Part shown: positions 5,606 through 47,248 of the stretch, one piece after another
Layout of the letters: each line of letters starts with the position of its first letter
How positions within the stretch are numbered: position 1 is the stretch's first letter
DNA from: a virus
Length of the DNA: 64,000 bases
Reading direction: 5' to 3' (one strand)
IMG/VR virus record: IMGVR_UViG_3300025151_000016
Made by a program: the position numbers and the translations under genes
Notes under the pieces: generated by a model
Database searches by the model: none
The model's input: the letters and a program-made list of their open reading frames with translations, nothing else
Told to the model about the DNA's origin: nothing

Positions 5606-6183
5606 TAATCGCTATTGAGTGGGTTGTCCAATGCTTCTTGTAATTTTTCGTTTAAATCATTTTCAAGTTGTCTCGAATCTGCATCAATACGTTCTTCAGT
5701 TTCTCTCATAGTATTGCGAACATCTTTTTCAGATTCACGCATAAGTCCTTCTACTTCACGTATAGATTGTGTAACATCTTTACGTAACTGATTCATTTCT
5801 TCACGCATAGTTTCTAAATGAGTTTCTATTAAGTCTTGAGAATTTTTCACTCTTACCTCTGATGCTTCTACTTTATCTTCTGCTCTGTCAGCATGTGCTT
5901 CCATTGCAGCTACGTCTTCACGTAAATCGTTTTTTATATCTCTTGCATATTCAATCGCTTCATCTACTCTTAACATGCTTTCATCTATTTTTAAAATAAC
6001 TTTTTCATTTTCCGCAGCGATTGCATCTACATCAATGTTCTGTACAATTTCTTTCATGTCTGTGTAGTCTTTGTAAAACTCAAAGCCAGCCCAAAGTCCT
6101 CCACCTAAAGTAGATAACGCAGTAAGAACGACAAACATCTTACCGCCTCTAAATGTTGTACCAGCAATTTCAAATTCTGCCAT
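5605..6183 (-). CDS. Membrane-anchored coiled-coil protein
   Basis: N-terminal TM (FVVLTALSTLGGGLWAGF) followed by a long heptad-rich helix. Confidence 0.75.
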   Translation of the reverse strand: MAEFEIAGTTFRGGKMFVVLTALSTLGGGLWAGFEFYKDYTDMKEIVQNIDVDAIAAENEKVILKIDESMLRVDEAIEYARDIKNDLREDVAAMEAHADRAEDKVEASEVRVKNSQDLIETHLETMREEMNQLRKDVTQSIREVEGLMRESEKDVRNTMRETEERIDADSRQLENDLNEKLQEALDNPLNSD

Positions 6184-6184
6184 G

Positions 6185-7573
6185 TTAGTTTCCTTCGTAC
6201 TGTTGTCTTACCATTTCTCTATGAGTAGCATCAGAAGCACCGTTAAAGAATCTTGCTGCAGGATTGTCATAGTTCTGTTGTCCTTCATATATTTCTTTTG
6301 GTGCATAAAAATCAGCGTCTGCCATCTGCGGTTGTTGGTACTGTGCAAAGTTAGGATTATATCCCATTAGCGCAGCTTGAGCATCTTCGCTATCATCACC
6401 AGCAACAGCAGCTGCAACTAAATCTTCTTGTGTTTCCAGTGATTCTTGCTTTGCTTCTTCTTCACTTTCTTCTTGATTTTCTATTTGTTCTGCAATAATA
6501 TTATCCTCAAGAGAAAGAATATTTGTTAAAGTATTTTCTATTACGTTAGTCGCTGTTGCAACTTCAAATGTATCAATCGTTATTTCTATATTTATAGACT
6601 GCTCTATAATTGATTCGGCAGATATATTACCTGTTTTATCAGGCATTTTCTTAACATCTTCGGATGCTACAACCTCTGGTTCTTCTGGTTCTTCTATCGT
6701 TTCAAGTTGTTCTTCGAGTGACATTACTTCTCCAGTCGATTGTATGTAAACCCATTCATCTTCTTGTAGTTGTGGTATTGTTTCATCTGGAGCATTACCT
6801 ATAAAGTCTTCACAAGTAGGATCTACAACGGGTACTTGTTTACATGGATCTGGATCATATACAAATGTGCTATAGATTGCAGCACTGCCAAACTCAGGTC
6901 CGTACCATCCTGGCCACTCGGCCGCATCTTTTCCTTCTATCTCAAGAGTAATAGTATCAATCTTATCACCAGTAATAAAAGGATCGTACCATTGCATTCC
7001 ATATTTTGTTTCCCATTGATCAATGTGGTAAGAGTAATCCCATTCTTTTTCGTCTAATACATTACCGGCTTTATCTTTTACAGTAACTGTAACGATAAGA
7101 GGATCTTGTCCTTCCACACCATTTGTGTCTTCCTGATTCGTATCTGCGTTTTTAACTTTCCATTGCCAACGATAACCAACAACAGTTATGCCAGCAACTT
7201 TAAGAGCTTGACCAATAGCATCTTGTGTTTGAGAAATAACTGATGTTTCGTACCCAAACGTGTAAGTATCTTTGTTTGTTGCTGAGTTCGCGCATTGACC
7301 ACCGGAACCAGGACTATTTTCTCCTCCGCTCCATCTTCTAAACCCAAATGTTTCAATACAACCAGTAGTTGCTTCATAGTCTAGATCTTCAATGATCTGA
7401 TCTATATAAACTTTATCTTCTTCAACACCAGAAAGATTAGTAGGCGCGAAGTTAAGCACGCTTTGATCAATATCATCTTGAGTTAAGTTACCGTCGTAAG
7501 AATATTCTTGACTAGATAGCGAGGAGCAAAGCAAGAAGAACGCCGCCGATAGTAAGAGCGGTTGTCTTATCAT
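6185..7573 (-). CDS. Exported acidic protein
   Basis: Signal-peptide-like MIRQPLLLSAAFFLLCSSLSS (start 7573), beta-rich core with Cys pairs, E-rich tail. Confidence 0.7.
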   Translation of the reverse strand: MIRQPLLLSAAFFLLCSSLSSQEYSYDGNLTQDDIDQSVLNFAPTNLSGVEEDKVYIDQIIEDLDYEATTGCIETFGFRRWSGGENSPGSGGQCANSATNKDTYTFGYETSVISQTQDAIGQALKVAGITVVGYRWQWKVKNADTNQEDTNGVEGQDPLIVTVTVKDKAGNVLDEKEWDYSYHIDQWETKYGMQWYDPFITGDKIDTITLEIEGKDAAEWPGWYGPEFGSAAIYSTFVYDPDPCKQVPVVDPTCEDFIGNAPDETIPQLQEDEWVYIQSTGEVMSLEEQLETIEEPEEPEVVASEDVKKMPDKTGNISAESIIEQSINIEITIDTFEVATATNVIENTLTNILSLEDNIIAEQIENQEESEEEAKQESLETQEDLVAAAVAGDDSEDAQAALMGYNPNFAQYQQPQMADADFYAPKEIYEGQQNYDNPAARFFNGASDATHREMVRQQYEGN

Positions 7574-8240
7574 TCTTTTCCTTTCTGTCATCTACTGGCT
7601 TAGCATCAGGATCGTTATCCCATAAAGCTTGAGCAACTGTGCCGATGTTTCCTTTGTATGGACAAGGTGTTCCAGCCATTTCCATAGCTTTAAATATAGT
7701 TTCTTCTTGACACATAAGTGCTACAGCCGCAACCTTCATACCCATGTTATAAAGTGTCTTGGCATTTTTTAACCTTTCACAGTTCATGTCACGAATATGT
7801 CCACCACCTGACATACCAAGTATCTGAGTTTGAACCGCTGCCGAATATGAGACAGTACATGTATCATTTCCACCTGATTGAATAGATGGTGCAATTGCTG
7901 AAGGCGGTGCAGTAATTACTTCTTGAGTAATATCACTGGTGTTATTATTATTATTGTTTGCTGTGCTGTTAACTGTAGTATTGTTTGTATTTGTATTTGT
8001 ACTAGTGCTCGTATTTGTATTATTTGTAGTAACATTAGAAGTAGAGTTAACAGTGCTTGTACTATTAACTGTAGTATTGTTTGTAGTTGTTACATTCGAA
8101 GTATTTGTATTGTTAGTGGTGCTGTCAGTTTCCACATAACTGGTAGAATCAAATTTGCCGTCTGCATCATCGGTCACATCACCAAAAGCTGCAGAGGTTG
8201 CAATCATTACGAAGAACGCACCAAGTAGATGCTTCTTCAT
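7512..8240 (-). CDS. Exported protein with N/T-rich low-complexity stalk, Cys-rich domain and C-terminal TM anchor
   Basis: Signal peptide, TNNTNTS-like repeats, four Cys, hydrophobic C-terminus; late promoter at 8269. Confidence 0.75.
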   Translation of the reverse strand: MKKHLLGAFFVMIATSAAFGDVTDDADGKFDSTSYVETDSTTNNTNTSNVTTTNNTTVNSTSTVNSTSNVTTNNTNTSTSTNTNTNNTTVNSTANNNNNNTSDITQEVITAPPSAIAPSIQSGGNDTCTVSYSAAVQTQILGMSGGGHIRDMNCERLKNAKTLYNMGMKVAAVALMCQEETIFKAMEMAGTPCPYKGNIGTVAQALWDNDPDAKPVDDRKEKNDKTTALTIGGVLLALLLAI

Positions 8241-8341: not shown

Positions 8342-8367
8342 AAAAGGAGGGCTAACCGTGGCCCTCC
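8342..8367 (-). terminator. Intrinsic terminator closing the tmRNA/porin unit
   Basis: GGAGGGC...GCCCTCC stem followed by TTTT on the minus strand. Confidence 0.75.
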
Positions 8368-8820: not shown

Positions 8821-9054
8821 TTATTTACGATTCCAGATTTCATACAGAACCCAAACTGAGATCAAACCCATGACGCCTTCAGCGCCGAGTCCAGCTAACA
8901 TTGCTGTTACATTGTCAACTACACTCATACCTTCGGGCATGAATGGCATAGCACTTAGTCCTAGTATCTCTAGGATAATCGCTAATGCAGCAACACTAAG
9001 TCCTACATCAGCTAAGGCGCCTGCCCATGATTTCACTTTGTTTAAAGTTTCCAT
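8821..9054 (-). CDS. Small integral membrane protein
   Basis: Two hydrophobic helices; AGGAG RBS at 9061-9065. Confidence 0.75.
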   Translation of the reverse strand: METLNKVKSWAGALADVGLSVAALAIILEILGLSAMPFMPEGMSVVDNVTAMLAGLGAEGVMGLISVWVLYEIWNRK

Positions 9055-9073: not shown

Positions 9074-9209
9074 GGTACCACTTTTCTGTTGCTAAGCAAG
9101 TGGCCAGCTCCCTGTGATTATGCAGCTAGTGCAAATCCAGAAGGTGCAAAGTTATCGTTTGCATTTATGTTTTATAGACTCAAATACCAGTCAATCCTAT
9201 TTCACCCCC
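9074..9209 (-). ncRNA. ssrA: tmRNA coding piece (permuted two-piece, alphaproteobacterial type); tag (A)ANDNFAPSGFALAA*
   Basis: 5' GGGGGTGAAATAGGATTGAC at 9209; tag frame 9162..9118; 3' helix GGCCACTT/AAGTGGTACC around GCAACAG; 3' end approximate. Confidence 0.9.
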
Positions 9210-9220
9210 ACAAAACCACA

Positions 9221-9412
9221 CTACTTGGAATCTAAAACTTCTTTGCATTTACCTGATGCATAAGTTTCGAACCAACGAGGAACAAAGGCATGTATGAAGC
9301 AAGCATATGCTGCTTTTTCCAACTGCCATGAAATCCACAAAGCTCGTTTGAAATGTTGCCAGCGTGTCATGCCAGCTTCTTCTACGTGTGATTTACATTT
9401 CTTACTAATCAT
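9221..9412 (-). CDS. DUF6356-like 63-aa protein inside the tmRNA intervening segment
   Basis: TAAGGA RBS then ATG at 9412: MISKKCKSHVEEAGMTRWQHFKRAL...CFIHAFVPRWFETYAS. Confidence 0.75.
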   Translation of the reverse strand: MISKKCKSHVEEAGMTRWQHFKRALWISWQLEKAAYACFIHAFVPRWFETYASGKCKEVLDSK

Positions 9413-9432
9413 GTTTTTCCTTAATGTGTTTT

Positions 9433-9486
9433 TGGTGGAGGTGCTGGGTTCTGCCCCCAGGTCCTGTATATCCTCTAACATCTATG
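9433..9486 (-). ncRNA. ssrA: tmRNA acceptor piece (T-arm plus 3' acceptor strand ending ACCA)
   Basis: GAC-CTGGG-GGCAGAA-CCCAG-CACCTCC-ACCA; CACCTCC pairs with GGGGGTG giving the G3.U70 alanine identity; 5' end approximate. Confidence 0.9.
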
Positions 9487-9491
9487 AGGTT

Positions 9492-9520
9492 ATTTAACCA
9501 TATATCCCAGAGAAAGTAAA
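9492..9520 (-). promoter_or_regulatory. Putative early-type promoter of the tmRNA unit
   Basis: TTTACT at 9515-9520, 17 bp spacer, TTAAAT. Confidence 0.5.
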
Positions 9521-9589
9521 TGGCTTTTCACGATATTCCTTGACCGTGATATAATTATCACTATACCATTAACATCGTATACGATGAAT

Positions 9590-9967
9590 TTACTCTTCTT
9601 CTTGAGTATCGTGAATGTATAATTGGATAAGGGCATAATGCAATACCTTCATCAAATCTTTACGAGCATCAGCGTGACTTCCTTTTTTGCCATATCGCTG
9701 AGCATACTTAAGAACATTACCGATACAGAAACCAGTGCCGTGGCCTCCATCAATAATGAATTCAGTTGCTTGAAACTTATCTTTAGCATAGTGCTGTTCA
9801 TATGTCCCATCAATATAATTCTTAAACTCTTCAATTAAATTGCCTTCATTAAATTTATAATCAATCATGTCGTAGTTATTTAAATCCAAGGTAATAGGTC
9901 CTATCGTATCAATTTCAATTGTTGAATTTTTATTAGCGAATTCGACTACGTTGTCGTCTTTTGCCAT
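9590..9967 (-). CDS. DUF3310-family (nucleotide-kinase-associated) protein
   Basis: TYEQHY...GFCIGNVLKYAQRYGKKG...DLMKVLHY motif. Confidence 0.8.
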   Translation of the reverse strand: MAKDDNVVEFANKNSTIEIDTIGPITLDLNNYDMIDYKFNEGNLIEEFKNYIDGTYEQHYAKDKFQATEFIIDGGHGTGFCIGNVLKYAQRYGKKGSHADARKDLMKVLHYALIQLYIHDTQEEE

Positions 9968-10121
9968 ATCCAAGTCTCCTCATAATTTTCATTCGTTCGT
10001 TGTAATGCATTCTCGGCCACTTACTTATTTCTTCTTGAGTTCTACCACAACCAACACATTCTTTTGTTTTTCTATCAATTCGACATATCTGTACGCATGG
10101 TGTTACGTACATCAATCCCAC
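9933..10121 (-). CDS. DUF1289-family Cys-rich protein
   Basis: TPCVQIC...CVGCGRTQEEISKW motif. Confidence 0.85.
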   Translation of the reverse strand: MGLMYVTPCVQICRIDRKTKECVGCGRTQEEISKWPRMHYNERMKIMRRLGYGKRRQRSRIR

Positions 10122-16592: not shown

Positions 16593-17162
16593 TTATCTTG
16601 TACCTCTACCACGTATTTCACGGTTAACCTTAGGGCGAAAATGCTTGATGGAAGCACCTTCAATATACTCAGCCATGCCATCAATATTGAATTGACTAGT
16701 ATTAATATATTTTATAACAATTTCTAAAGATTGTAAACCATTTTCTGTGAGAAACTCTCTAAATTTTCTACCAGATGATTCACTAATTACACTATCATCT
16801 AGAAAACTTCTTAGATGATTACCTTGGCGGCTATTGATGCTTGCAGATGGAGCGTCTGTTTTACCAATATAAAGTGTATAAGGTCCTAATGTAACAAACC
16901 AACCGTATACACCTTTTGCTTTGCTTGCTGCAAAAGGAGCCGGTCCTCTTTGACCAGGAATTCTTTCAAGCTTCTTAGGAACTTCTAAAAATTCATAATC
17001 AAAATCTACATATGGAAGAGATTTGCCGGCAAAATCTGGTAGATCTCTTGGAGGCATATTCTTTTTATGTAAACGTATTTTTCCATAAACTTCAGCCTCA
17101 TCCCATAATTTTTTAATATCAATCGAACTAAGCATTGATGCTAAATTATTTAATATAGACAT
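16593..17162 (-). CDS. GIY-YIG endonuclease (EndoII/DenA-like)
   Basis: GVYGW...LYIGKT...SRQGNH...IEGASIKHFRPKVN; start MSILNN at 17162 (TAATG). Confidence 0.7.
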   Translation of the reverse strand: MSILNNLASMLSSIDIKKLWDEAEVYGKIRLHKKNMPPRDLPDFAGKSLPYVDFDYEFLEVPKKLERIPGQRGPAPFAASKAKGVYGWFVTLGPYTLYIGKTDAPSASINSRQGNHLRSFLDDSVISESSGRKFREFLTENGLQSLEIVIKYINTSQFNIDGMAEYIEGASIKHFRPKVNREIRGRGTR

Positions 17163-17440
17163 TATCTGTAATCCCGAATGTATACGTCCCAATGCGTTGC
17201 ATTTTCTTTTGGCGTATCTTTTGCCCAACGATGTAAACGTGGACCACGTGGTCTGCACCATACACCTTGTGTAGGACGATCACGATTAATATCAAAGTAT
17301 GGGGATTTGCGATAGTTCTTGATGAAGCTGTTGCGATAAGCAAGTAGTTCTTTAAGTCCAGCAATAGCAGGATCATCAAGAGTTTTAACCGTAAAACGAT
17401 AATTTTCGGATGTACGATTTTTATAAGTTACATAAGCCAT
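17162..17440 (-). CDS. Hypothetical basic protein
   Basis: Coupled ORF in an early operon. Confidence 0.65.
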   Translation of the reverse strand: MAYVTYKNRTSENYRFTVKTLDDPAIAGLKELLAYRNSFIKNYRKSPYFDINRDRPTQGVWCRPRGPRLHRWAKDTPKENATHWDVYIRDYR

Positions 17441-44863: not shown

Positions 44864-46183
44864 TTATGCCATGATGTTGTCAACACGGAAGATTCTGTAG
44901 TACTGGTTTGTTTTCGCTGTTGCAAGACCATTAGCTGGTGCTGAACCTACGAATGGGTTTGACGCCATGCCGTAACGAGTTTTAAAACCAATTTTTGGCT
45001 GGAAGTCATTCTCACCAACCGCACGTACCATTGTTAACGGTACATATGGACAGTAGAAAACACCTGCGTCATATGGGTTAGTACCCTTATAACCTACAGT
45101 TACATAATCGGTTGTTGAATACGGGTCAATATAGACTCGTGTTTTACCGTTCATAACACCTGCAAATGTATTACCTGTGTCATCAACATTCAAGTTAGTT
45201 GAAAGTGCCGGAGCATAATCCAAAGAACCTGCAGCTGCTAGAGCAGAAGCAACGTCTGAAGAACAGATAATGAAGTTACCTTTTCCTCTACGTGTTTCTT
45301 TTGCAATCACGTTTGAATCTCTTTCGATTTGTACGTGTAAGCCTTTGAATTTTTCAACTGACCAACGACCGTCAGCATCTGTTGACATGTCAAAGATACC
45401 GTTGATTGCTGTTGAGGATTGACCTGCACCAGTTTTAGCTTGTGAGTTGATTGTTCGGATTACTTCACGGTTAATTTCCGCTAAGATCTCTGTTGACAGA
45501 ATGTTTGCCAATTCTGTCTCAGCATCAAGACCATGAATTGCTTTCAAGTCTTGTGCTAGTTCTAGAGAGTATTCCGCTTTCAACGCACGTGACTTCGCAG
45601 TCACAGTTGATTTTTCGATGGTGAAGCCCATGTTACGGAATGCACCTGAAAGTTCAGATCTACCGGTGTCTATACCGTCGCCGAATGTAAGGCTTCGTTC
45701 TGAGTCAAGTGATGAGTCACCGGCAACGTTACCAGCTGCTGGATCGATTCCGTCAAGACCTGATGGTGATGAGGAATGAGTATCTGAAGAGTCACCAGCG
45801 AATGTAGTGTCTGCTTCGTTGAATAGAGCTTCGGTTGCACCAGTTGTACCACTTGTGTAGCGAGCTTTCATCGCGAAGATCAGGCCTGTTGGACCAGTCA
45901 TCGGCTGAACGCCTGCAACGTCATAAGCGATCATGTTAGGTGCTGCACGACGTACTAATGAAATCAATACTGGATCCCAGTTTGATACAGATGCATTAGA
46001 TACAGAAGTTGCAGGTGCTTCTGACAAGAAGCTCATCTGTGCGCGCTCTTCTTGAAGAGCTTTTTCTGTGTTCTCTAAGAGAACAGCTGTTACTGCTTTA
46101 CGGTGGTTGTCAGCGATAGTACCGGCAGATTCTTCTGCTAATACTGGATTCCACTTTTCCACCAAACGATCATAAGTTTCCAT
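44864..46183 (-). CDS. gp23: Major capsid protein (gp23)
   Basis: GVQPMTGPTGLIFAM, KSRALKAEYSLELAQDLKAIHGLDAE, FQPKIGFKTRYG. Confidence 0.98.
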   Translation of the reverse strand: METYDRLVEKWNPVLAEESAGTIADNHRKAVTAVLLENTEKALQEERAQMSFLSEAPATSVSNASVSNWDPVLISLVRRAAPNMIAYDVAGVQPMTGPTGLIFAMKARYTSGTTGATEALFNEADTTFAGDSSDTHSSSPSGLDGIDPAAGNVAGDSSLDSERSLTFGDGIDTGRSELSGAFRNMGFTIEKSTVTAKSRALKAEYSLELAQDLKAIHGLDAETELANILSTEILAEINREVIRTINSQAKTGAGQSSTAINGIFDMSTDADGRWSVEKFKGLHVQIERDSNVIAKETRRGKGNFIICSSDVASALAAAGSLDYAPALSTNLNVDDTGNTFAGVMNGKTRVYIDPYSTTDYVTVGYKGTNPYDAGVFYCPYVPLTMVRAVGENDFQPKIGFKTRYGMASNPFVGSAPANGLATAKTNQYYRIFRVDNIMA

Positions 46184-46195
46184 TTCTAGAACTCC

Positions 46196-47248
46196 TTAAG
46201 GATTTGATTTTCTAATTGCGTTAAGGTACTGAGACATTACATCGCTAACTTCTACAGAAGGTGTATCTTCATCTGTAGTGTCTTCTACGATTGCGGACTC
46301 AGCGGTTTTCTTTGCAAAATATGTTTCTTTGATAGTAGCAACTTTTTGTGTAAAAGTTTCTTCATCTTCAAAGTCAATTTCTTCTGCTAGAGTTTTTAGC
46401 TTCTCGACTTGAGTTTCTGCTAGATCTTTAGATGCTTCACGGATGATAGCATCACGCTTAAGATCTTCTAGTTCTTCAGCAAGTGCGATAGACTTAGTCA
46501 TTGCATCGTTGTAGCTTTCTTCAAGCTCTTCGTTTGCACTGGCTAGTTCGTCGACGAGGTCAACTTTGGACTCAGGTACTTCTACGTAAGACTCTACGAA
46601 TAGATCTTTCATCTTGTTCATAAATGTCTCAGCGATTTCAGTACGCAAACCTGTTTGTACAGCAAGTTTGTTTTCTTCCATCCATGTCTCAACCACATAG
46701 TTGAGGTAGCTATCAACCTTCTCTACCATCTGTTCTTTTGTAGAAGCAAGTTCTGTTTCCAGTTCTTCTTTATACGCTTCTTCCAAACGATCGATTTCTT
46801 GAGAAAGTTTTGCCTTTACCGCAGCTTCAAAAATTACAGCTGTTTTGGCTTTGAACTCTTCGGAAAGAGTTGCCTCAGATTCGACTAATGCATTTAGGTC
46901 ATCAGAGAAATCAACTTTAATGTCGAGTTCTTGATCTTCAATAATTGTATCTTCGATATCATCGGCAGATACGTCTTCACCCATCATTTTACCATATGCA
47001 GCCATTAGCTGGTCTTTTTTCATACCAGTCATCATGCCGTGCATAGCATTGATCATGCCAGCTTTTGTCTTTGGCATTGGTTCGCTGTTTTTCTTATCAC
47101 CTTTGCGAGCCGGAGCTTGCGAGGTGTTATCCCCAGCTTTATCTACAGAAGCGACAGATTGTGCCTCTGCATTTTTAGGATCGTGAGCTTCTTCCACAAC
47201 GTCGTTGTCATCGAGCTCAACTTCCTGGTCTTCTACTTGATCAGTCAT
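46196..47248 (-). CDS. gp22: Prohead core scaffold protein (gp22)
   Basis: LSEEFKAK..IFEAAV, VDSYLNYVVETW; acidic coiled coil. Confidence 0.92.
   Translation of the reverse strand: MTDQVEDQEVELDDNDVVEEAHDPKNAEAQSVASVDKAGDNTSQAPARKGDKKNSEPMPKTKAGMINAMHGMMTGMKKDQLMAAYGKMMGEDVSADDIEDTIIEDQELDIKVDFSDDLNALVESEATLSEEFKAKTAVIFEAAVKAKLSQEIDRLEEAYKEELETELASTKEQMVEKVDSYLNYVVETWMEENKLAVQTGLRTEIAETFMNKMKDLFVESYVEVPESKVDLVDELASANEELEESYNDAMTKSIALAEELEDLKRDAIIREASKDLAETQVEKLKTLAEEIDFEDEETFTQKVATIKETYFAKKTAESAIVEDTTDEDTPSVEVSDVMSQYLNAIRKSNP

Follow-up and report, generated by a model that had tools for sequence, protein, structure and literature searches.

The segment of RNA that separates the two pieces of a permuted tmRNA is usually treated as short, non-coding and destined to be discarded. 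Here we describe a viral locus at which this segment holds a protein gene. The locus is located in a stretch of 64,000 nucleotides from IMG/VR virus record IMGVR_UViG_3300025151_000016 (hereafter called the window), and the region studied extends from position 9524 to position 9074 on the minus strand. We believe it quite likely that this region encodes a working phage tmRNA in which the hairpin loop of the spacer acts as a promoter-driven slot where small genes can be exchanged, and which in the present case holds a gene of the DUF6356 family.

The phage and its tmRNA region

Judging from its gene content, the source of the window is a marine T4-like myophage of the Melnitz/pelagimyophage group. 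We assign this phage type because PHROGs matches identify T4-type genes for DNA polymerase, the major head protein, portal, tail sheath and terminase, and because the capsid protein shares 67% identity with that of phage C48C1, 63% with that of OM43 phage Melnitz and 61% with that of Pelagibacter phage HTVC008M. A blastn search of the region against cultured phages gave no match. All genes that neighbour the tmRNA are on the same strand. Upstream are genes for a cell-wall hydrolase, a DUF1289 protein and a DUF3310 protein, and downstream are genes for proteins of 77 and 132 amino acids. The DUF1289 gene (9933-10121, minus strand) encodes a cysteine-rich mini-protein and is situated two genes upstream of the tmRNA. 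The 77-amino-acid gene also adjoins the 3′ side of the tmRNA in another viral locus (L030).

A permuted tmRNA gene

The original prediction placed a permuted, two-piece tmRNA gene on the minus strand, and all of its coordinates hold (Table 1). The region from 9524 to 9074 matches Rfam model RF04321 (permuted tmRNA) with 77.3 bits, compared to a gathering cut-off of 47, and the alphaproteobacterial model RF01849 with 67.2 bits, compared to a cut-off of 50. The long insertion in the Rfam alignment falls exactly in the spacer, and the phage tmRNA lacks most of the pseudoknot regions of the RF01849 model. Unlike the covariance models, ARAGORN found no tmRNA in the window. Our guess is that the long spacer causes this miss.

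Table 1. Coordinates of features in and around the tmRNA region of the window.
Feature	Position	Strand	Basis
Promoter-like site: TTTACT (9520-9515), 17-nt gap, TG-extended TTAAAT (9497-9492)	9492..9520	-	Read from sequence; conservation
Acceptor piece: 5′ P2 strand, T-arm (9460-9444), acceptor 3′ strand CACCTCC (9443-9437), ACCA (9436-9433)	9433..9485	-	RF04321 and RF01849
Intervening segment (spacer), 223 nt	9210..9432	-	Between ACCA end and G1 of coding piece
Spacer-closing helix, 5′ strand AAAACACATTA	9422..9432	-	11-bp helix, covariation in 8 relatives
Shine-Dalgarno-like AAGGA, 5 nt before ATG	9418..9422	-	Read from sequence
63-codon DUF6356 gene, stop TAG (9223-9221)	9221..9412	-	Pfam, dN/dS, AF2 model
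Spacer-closing helix, 3′ strand TAGTGTGGTTTT, with ORF stop codon and one bulged G	9212..9223	-	Pairing, covariation, MFE fold
Coding piece: acceptor 5′ strand GGGGGTG (9209-9203), tag frame (9162-9118)	9074..9209	-	Rfam; tag translated
77-aa membrane-like gene	8821..9054	-	ORF list; directly 3′ of tmRNA, probably co-transcribed
First terminator-like hairpin downstream of tmRNA unit	8346..8367	-	Terminator scan; none before it

The tag frame translates to ANDNFAPSGFALAA followed by a stop codon, and the encoded tag finishes with a hydrophobic AA degron. The GGGGGTG sequence that begins the coding piece pairs with CACCTCC of the acceptor piece, and this stem includes the G3.U70 pair that had been noted beforehand. 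Conservation of pairing was assessed on a named structure in an alignment of eight spacer-gene tmRNAs, whose ORFs differ from each other by up to dS>1. Among these eight genes, every acceptor-stem position is paired (100%) and two of the pairs are compensatory; the stem is formed by the variants CACCTCC/GGGGGTG, CTGCTCC/GGGGCAG, CAGCTCC/GGGGCTG and CTCCTCC/GGGGGAG. The U.G pair at 3:70 (G3.U70) is present in every one of them. The T-arm is likewise 100% paired, with three compensatory pairs, and a total of 10 pairs have changed on both sides in the alignment. When the partners were slid by one to three columns as a control, pairing was only 39-52%. A mis-specified version of the proximal P2 helix gave 48% pairing, and we draw no conclusion from it. 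Furthermore, the tag frames are kept in divergent relatives and all end in ALAA, and Rfam confirms the presence of a tmRNA in those spacer-ORF loci that were scanned.

The complementary ends of the spacer, which were proposed to extend the acceptor helix, are also supported by comparative data. The 5′ strand AAAACACATTA pairs with TAGTGTG(G)TTTT to form 11 base pairs with one bulged G, and the stop codon of the DUF6356 ORF sits within this helix. The helix is 95% paired in the eight relatives, compared to 39-52% in the slid controls, and carries two compensatory pairs, such as the exchange of AAAACACAT/GTGTGTTTT for AAAATACAT/ATGTATTTT. The same helix recurs in most spacers of at least 24 nt among 74 viral genes (described below), with further covariation beyond the core, and its apparent universality is inflated because the loci came from a search pattern that contains the helix sequence. 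In the minimum free energy (MFE) fold of the precursor, the T-arm, the acceptor stem and the closing helix all form. The fold of the whole precursor is no more stable than that of shuffled sequences (z -1.2), as is expected because the insert is mostly coding. Sequestration of the Shine-Dalgarno sequence was considered as a possible feature and rejected: the MFE fold of the window pairs this element with UUCC near the end of the ORF, and the partner sequence is not kept in a related spacer (L017).

A protein gene within the spacer

The spacer was predicted to be filled by a ribosome-binding site and a 63-codon DUF6356-like ORF, and both elements are present as described. The encoded protein matches Pfam DUF6356 (PF19883) at positions 5-57 of the 64 in the profile (E 2.5e-12; 47.2 bits versus a gathering threshold of 24.4), and its nearest clusters in the ESM Atlas are all DUF6356 proteins, mostly viral. 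A complete ORF of such length occurs in 34 of 20,000 shuffles of the spacer. A lack of conservation was to have counted against the gene, and the ORF is in fact conserved: pairwise dN/dS values range from 0.04 to 0.15 among nine spacer copies, with synonymous divergence often greater than 1. Variable columns in the spacer copies are distributed over the three codon positions as 16/11/45, and the GGA core at the Shine-Dalgarno position is kept in all of them. We consider, on this comparative evidence, that the spacer ORF is a genuine protein gene under strong purifying selection. Gene callers used by the databases list the spacer protein as 86 amino acids in length, which in the window corresponds to an ORF at 9481-9221. 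This longer version looks like an annotation artefact of nesting because the 86-amino-acid ORF starts inside the acceptor piece.

We found no characterisation of DUF6356 in the literature. A confident AlphaFold2 model of the protein consists of three helices (pLDDT 82), and a Foldseek search of the PDB with this model returned nothing significant. The best match in shape is the ferritin-like helical hairpin of EncB (E about 8), which we treat as a lead only, to be set beside the conserved residues His9, His20 and His41. These three residues, together with Pro45, are invariant or nearly so across the family. No nuclease or integrase domain was found in the inserted ORF, for which DUF6356 is the sole Pfam match and whose three-helix model has no significant PDB match.

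It was also proposed that the product of this gene might act on trans-translation or proteolysis. However, the distribution of the family does not favour this part of the original prediction. A protein search of IMG/VR yielded 52 loci with relatives of the spacer ORF. In 10 of these the ORF resides between an acceptor piece and a coding piece, and in 41 it is a free-standing, ordinary operon gene without a surrounding tmRNA; one such free copy (L019) is 84% identical. The protein tree is built on 63 residues and leaves 17 of its 34 forks open, and we do not read from it the number of times that spacer copies originated. Among deposited phage genomes, only weak matches were encountered, in spindle-shaped viruses of Nitrosopumilaceae, archaeal hosts that are not known to have tmRNA. 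The matches are located at 17152-17280 of BK067784.1 and 7534-7677 of BK067785.1 (42-46% identity, E about 1e-4), and the family may span viruses of seawater bacteria and archaea. The weak archaeal virus homologues, and the unrelated ORFs that occupy the same slot elsewhere, also speak against a dedicated role, and we see no support for linking the DUF6356 protein specifically to ribosome rescue.

Occupants of the spacer in other phages

To survey the same site in other viruses, IMG/VR was scanned at two sites, namely the acceptor end together with the first part of the helix, and the start of the coding piece. Together, the scans uncovered 74 different permuted tmRNA genes of viruses, whose spacers range from 8 to 443 nt. 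About a quarter of the genes found by DNA pattern alone (17 of 66) have spacers of at least 100 nt, and nearly all of the long spacers are filled by ORFs. The contents of the segment in related phages, which had been singled out as informative, prove to be a DUF6356 gene, unrelated small ORFs or only a 30-nt hairpin. In addition to the DUF6356 gene alone, the occupants include a DUF6356 gene with a second ORF of 89 amino acids (443-nt spacer, L030), a 37-amino-acid membrane peptide whose ATG and UGA are provided by the conserved flanks (122-nt spacers in L087, L144 and L168), a tryptophan-rich peptide of 43-47 amino acids, a DUF2061-like protein of 68 amino acids that falls below the Pfam cut-off, and a 75-amino-acid protein, with others besides. 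Rough dN/dS values for three of the other occupant families are 0.19-0.51. For all spacer genes seen, the stop codon either falls within the 3′ strand of the helix or abuts it.

Some of these arrangements have unusual details. In the 443-nt spacer (2982-3424 in L030/L031), the two ORFs overlap at their junction, the DUF6356 protein has a longer tail, and the reading frame of the 89-amino-acid, membrane-like ORF extends across the closing helix as far as the first bases of the coding piece. For the 37-codon peptide, the ATG comes from the 5′ helix strand TAAACACATGG, and the stop codon is the UGA within the UGAU leader that immediately precedes G1.

The tmRNA flanks of a gene-bearing spacer of 225 nt (L020) are 92% identical to those of a locus in which the spacer is only a 30-nt hairpin with a 4-nt loop (L075). 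Moreover, the same cassette families are found on different backbones in a tmRNA tree that, with about 200 nt, is indicative only. These patterns suggest that genes may have been exchanged between tmRNA backbones, although the tmRNA tree (about 200 nt) and the protein tree (63 residues) are both poorly resolved.

A scan of contigs from cellular genomes revealed two permuted tmRNAs among the 120 matches listed, and most of the others are unrelated CCA ends. The Rhodobiaceae MAG MED766 (PAHC01000018.1, minus strand 6172-6677) carries a cellular-looking alphaproteobacterial tmRNA that scores 275 bits with RF01849 and resides on a 164-kb contig. Its spacer is 184 nt long and has a 49-codon membrane-like ORF, and the slot may therefore not be restricted to phages.

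Transcription and processing of the precursor

The two hexamers of the promoter-like site upstream of the acceptor piece are invariant in two relatives (L013 and L015), whereas the intervening sequence is variable. In other clades, the equivalent site reads TTGACA-17-TATAAAT. The predicted transcript start, near 9485, is the first position of the Rfam match. This site is absent from the list produced by a consensus promoter scan because position 2 of its -10 hexamer is not A. In eight other loci (L020, L075, L084, L098, L083, L141, L087 and L003), the -10 element of the tmRNA promoter reads TATAAATA, which corresponds to the consensus for T4 late promoters, and the accompanying -35 element is TTGACA. 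A tmRNA gene with this combination might be read both early and late. A conserved palindrome, GTGATA-N4-TATCAC, is located about 60 nt upstream of the predicted tmRNA start (window 9546-9561, both strands). It is also found upstream of the tmRNA in L013, L015, L017, L018 and L067, which represent clades with differing surroundings, and it may be an operator or another type of protein-binding site.

The promoter scan detected no minus-strand promoter-like site inside the spacer. Because of this, and because no terminator-like hairpin precedes the one at 8346-8367, the two tmRNA pieces, the spacer gene and probably two downstream genes would share one transcript. RNA data were available as assembled contigs (Logan) of marine RNA libraries, which are matched through small word shares. 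One contig from an RNA library stops exactly at 9209 and runs into the downstream gene (bridging 9209 to 8973), another covers only 9211-9405, and a third, from a library that is possibly DNA, spans 9112-9462. The first two give a weak hint of processing. Joints at 9209>9432 and 9213>9431 were also considered as RNA processing products and rejected, as these are relatives with short spacers.

Bacterial 3′ maturation of genes that encode CCA usually proceeds by a downstream endonuclease cut followed by trimming, and therefore the 5′ end of any released spacer RNA need not be 9432. It is plausible that maturation releases a free mini-mRNA of 223 nt. RNase P would be expected to cleave ahead of G1, and the 3′ end to be matured as far as the encoded CCA, since these are the known maturation steps of permuted tmRNAs (Keiler et al. 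2000, as cited in PMC9004378).

Starting from the tmRNA, the spacer gene, the closing helix and the variable occupancy of the slot that we observe, our preferred explanation can be outlined as follows. A functional two-piece tmRNA gene of the alphaproteobacterial type would be driven by its own promoter. The spacer in this phage lineage is closed by a conserved helix of 10-12 bp, an empty slot is a 30-nt hairpin, and in the window the hairpin loop holds a small gene that has its own ribosome-binding site and a stop codon in the 3′ strand of the helix. The gene would be transcribed as part of the pre-tmRNA, and the helix would bring the two tmRNA halves together across the 223-nt insert. RNase P cleavage at 9209/9210 and 3′ maturation of the acceptor piece would then separate the pieces, and either the precursor or the released spacer RNA would serve as the template for translation of the spacer gene. 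The parts of this proposal that we infer are co-transcription, the sites of processing and the RNA form that is translated. The slot itself would be generic: a highly transcribed and dispensable site through which different small phage genes are exchanged by means of the conserved flanks.

Competing explanations

It is appropriate to question whether the tmRNA-like sequence might be a decaying relic, or a mere tRNA-like processing signal that punctuates a polycistronic mRNA, rather than a working tmRNA. The sequence does lie within a dense array of genes on one strand that lacks a terminator ahead of 8346, its score with the alphaproteobacterial model is only 67 bits compared to 256-275 bits for cellular genes, and most of the pseudoknot regions of that model are absent. 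However, reduced tmRNAs are usual in phages of the Melnitz/pelagimyophage group (PMC9004378). Because the stems are paired and every tRNA-like helix carries compensatory changes, and because G3.U70 is invariant and the tag frame with its ALAA end is kept even in divergent relatives, we judge that the window tmRNA is maintained and is not a relic, which makes this alternative highly improbable. An untranslated ORF in a spacer that is conserved as RNA only is scarcely credible given the low dN/dS values, the concentration of changes at third codon positions, the Pfam family match and the presence of free-standing homologues in ordinary coding contexts. We also regard as very unlikely a functional tie of the spacer protein to tmRNA, whereby it would participate in trans-translation or in the proteolysis of tagged proteins and nesting would keep its amount proportional to that of tmRNA. 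The persistence of nesting across lineages with saturated synonymous divergence is in keeping with such a tie, and transcription from the tmRNA promoter would couple both outputs. Even so, 41 of the 52 related viral loci carry the gene without tmRNA, the free copy in L019 is closely similar, weak homologues exist in viruses of hosts that are not known to have tmRNA, unrelated ORFs occupy the slot elsewhere, and the model has no structural match to any rescue or protease factor.

Other proposals accept both the tmRNA and the gene and assign a regulatory purpose to their arrangement. In one of these, maturation of tmRNA would be confined to transcripts on which translation is not under way, and we consider this switch unlikely. 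The mechanism envisioned for it, which we hold to be equally doubtful, is that ribosomes on the spacer gene melt the helix and part of the acceptor stem and thereby block RNase P, because the stop codon lies in the helix, 11 nt before G1. The geometry in the window (stop at 9223-9221, G1 at 9209) is suggestive in this regard, as are the stop codons in or against the 3′ strand in all spacer genes seen and the flanks that in some cases supply both ATG and UGA. Yet the switch is wholly inferential, ORFs that did no more than fill the loop would show this geometry as a matter of course, and empty slots keep the helix, which means that the helix does not exist for switching. We similarly doubt that the spacer is more than a site where insertions are tolerated, namely an evolved expression device that yields a panhandle-protected, excised mini-mRNA, and in which cassette translation and tmRNA maturation are mutually exclusive for each molecule. 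Such exclusion would arise because the stop, and for some cassettes also the start, is in the helix next to the RNase P site. If true, the locus would have a built-in sensor that links the supply of free ribosomes to production of the ribosome-rescue RNA. An exchangeable slot for small genes remains our favoured explanation for the arrangement.

Comparison with known systems

Phage two-piece tmRNAs are already known (PMC9004378). The marine T4-like phages Melnitz, Mosig and HTVC008M described in that report belong to the same phage group, and their major capsid proteins are 58-63% identical to that of the window. They have the same alphaproteobacterial-type permuted tmRNA and the same spacer-closing helix, and Melnitz has a strong promoter directly upstream. 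Their spacers are 44 nt (Mosig), 49 nt (HTVC008M) and 142 nt (Melnitz) in length, compared to 223 nt in the window. Neither the paper nor the GenBank record describes a spacer gene, whereas the window spacer holds a selected gene that can be classified by Pfam. The 142-nt Melnitz spacer (MZ577097.1, about 46077-46218) has a GGAG sequence and an ATG-led candidate ORF of ~40 codons, whose frame continues into the coding piece; no CDS is annotated inside the tmRNA feature. Since Melnitz is a cultured phage, this candidate ORF in the slot provides an experimental system. Among the questions raised by these arrangements is whether spacer translation competes with tmRNA maturation.

Cellular alphaproteobacterial ssrA genes (RF01849), such as that of Caulobacter, share with the window the order of acceptor piece, spacer and coding piece, a single precursor, the G3.U70 pair and a tag that ends in AA. 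In contrast to the 223-nt coding spacer of the window, the cellular spacers are short and non-coding, in agreement with the original prediction: 10 nt in SAR116, 12 nt in Pelagibacteraceae and 28 nt in Hellea among the genomes checked. The SAR116 and Pelagibacteraceae tmRNAs lack the closing helix, and the phage RNA differs from its cellular counterparts by the loss of most pseudoknot regions.

Foreign elements have been reported in other tmRNA genes. Known intervening sequences include a tRNA-Ala gene or a repetitive element, and group I introns are present in the T-loop, some with LAGLIDADG genes (PMC11915505). As in the window, a foreign element resides inside the tmRNA gene, and it is tolerated because RNA processing removes it. 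The known elements comprise an RNA gene, a repetitive sequence and self-splicing introns with a homing gene, whereas the window has an ordinary small protein gene with no splicing and no nuclease domain. This paper, which describes a tmRNA database (2025), mentions no protein gene within a spacer and presents a single tRNA gene in an intervening segment as unique (PMC11915505). We found no description of a protein gene in a tmRNA spacer in the full-text literature searched, the coverage of which is incomplete, such that an earlier description is possible.

A selected protein gene, and the swapping of small genes in a slot framed by a helix, would mean that one transcript can be both a messenger and the precursor of a stable RNA. 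There are also practical consequences, because ARAGORN misses tmRNA genes that carry spacer genes, and gene callers extend the ORF through the acceptor piece to create the 86-amino-acid entries.

Transcripts that combine stable RNAs with protein genes are otherwise familiar from the tRNA-tufB operon of E. coli and from the tRNA region of phage T4 with its interspersed ORFs. As we propose for the window, a protein gene in these systems is co-transcribed with stable RNA, and RNase P and other tRNA-processing enzymes then cut the two apart. However, the ORFs of the tRNA-tufB and T4 systems are located between separate RNA genes, whereas the ORF in the window lies between the halves of one RNA that must still pair with each other.
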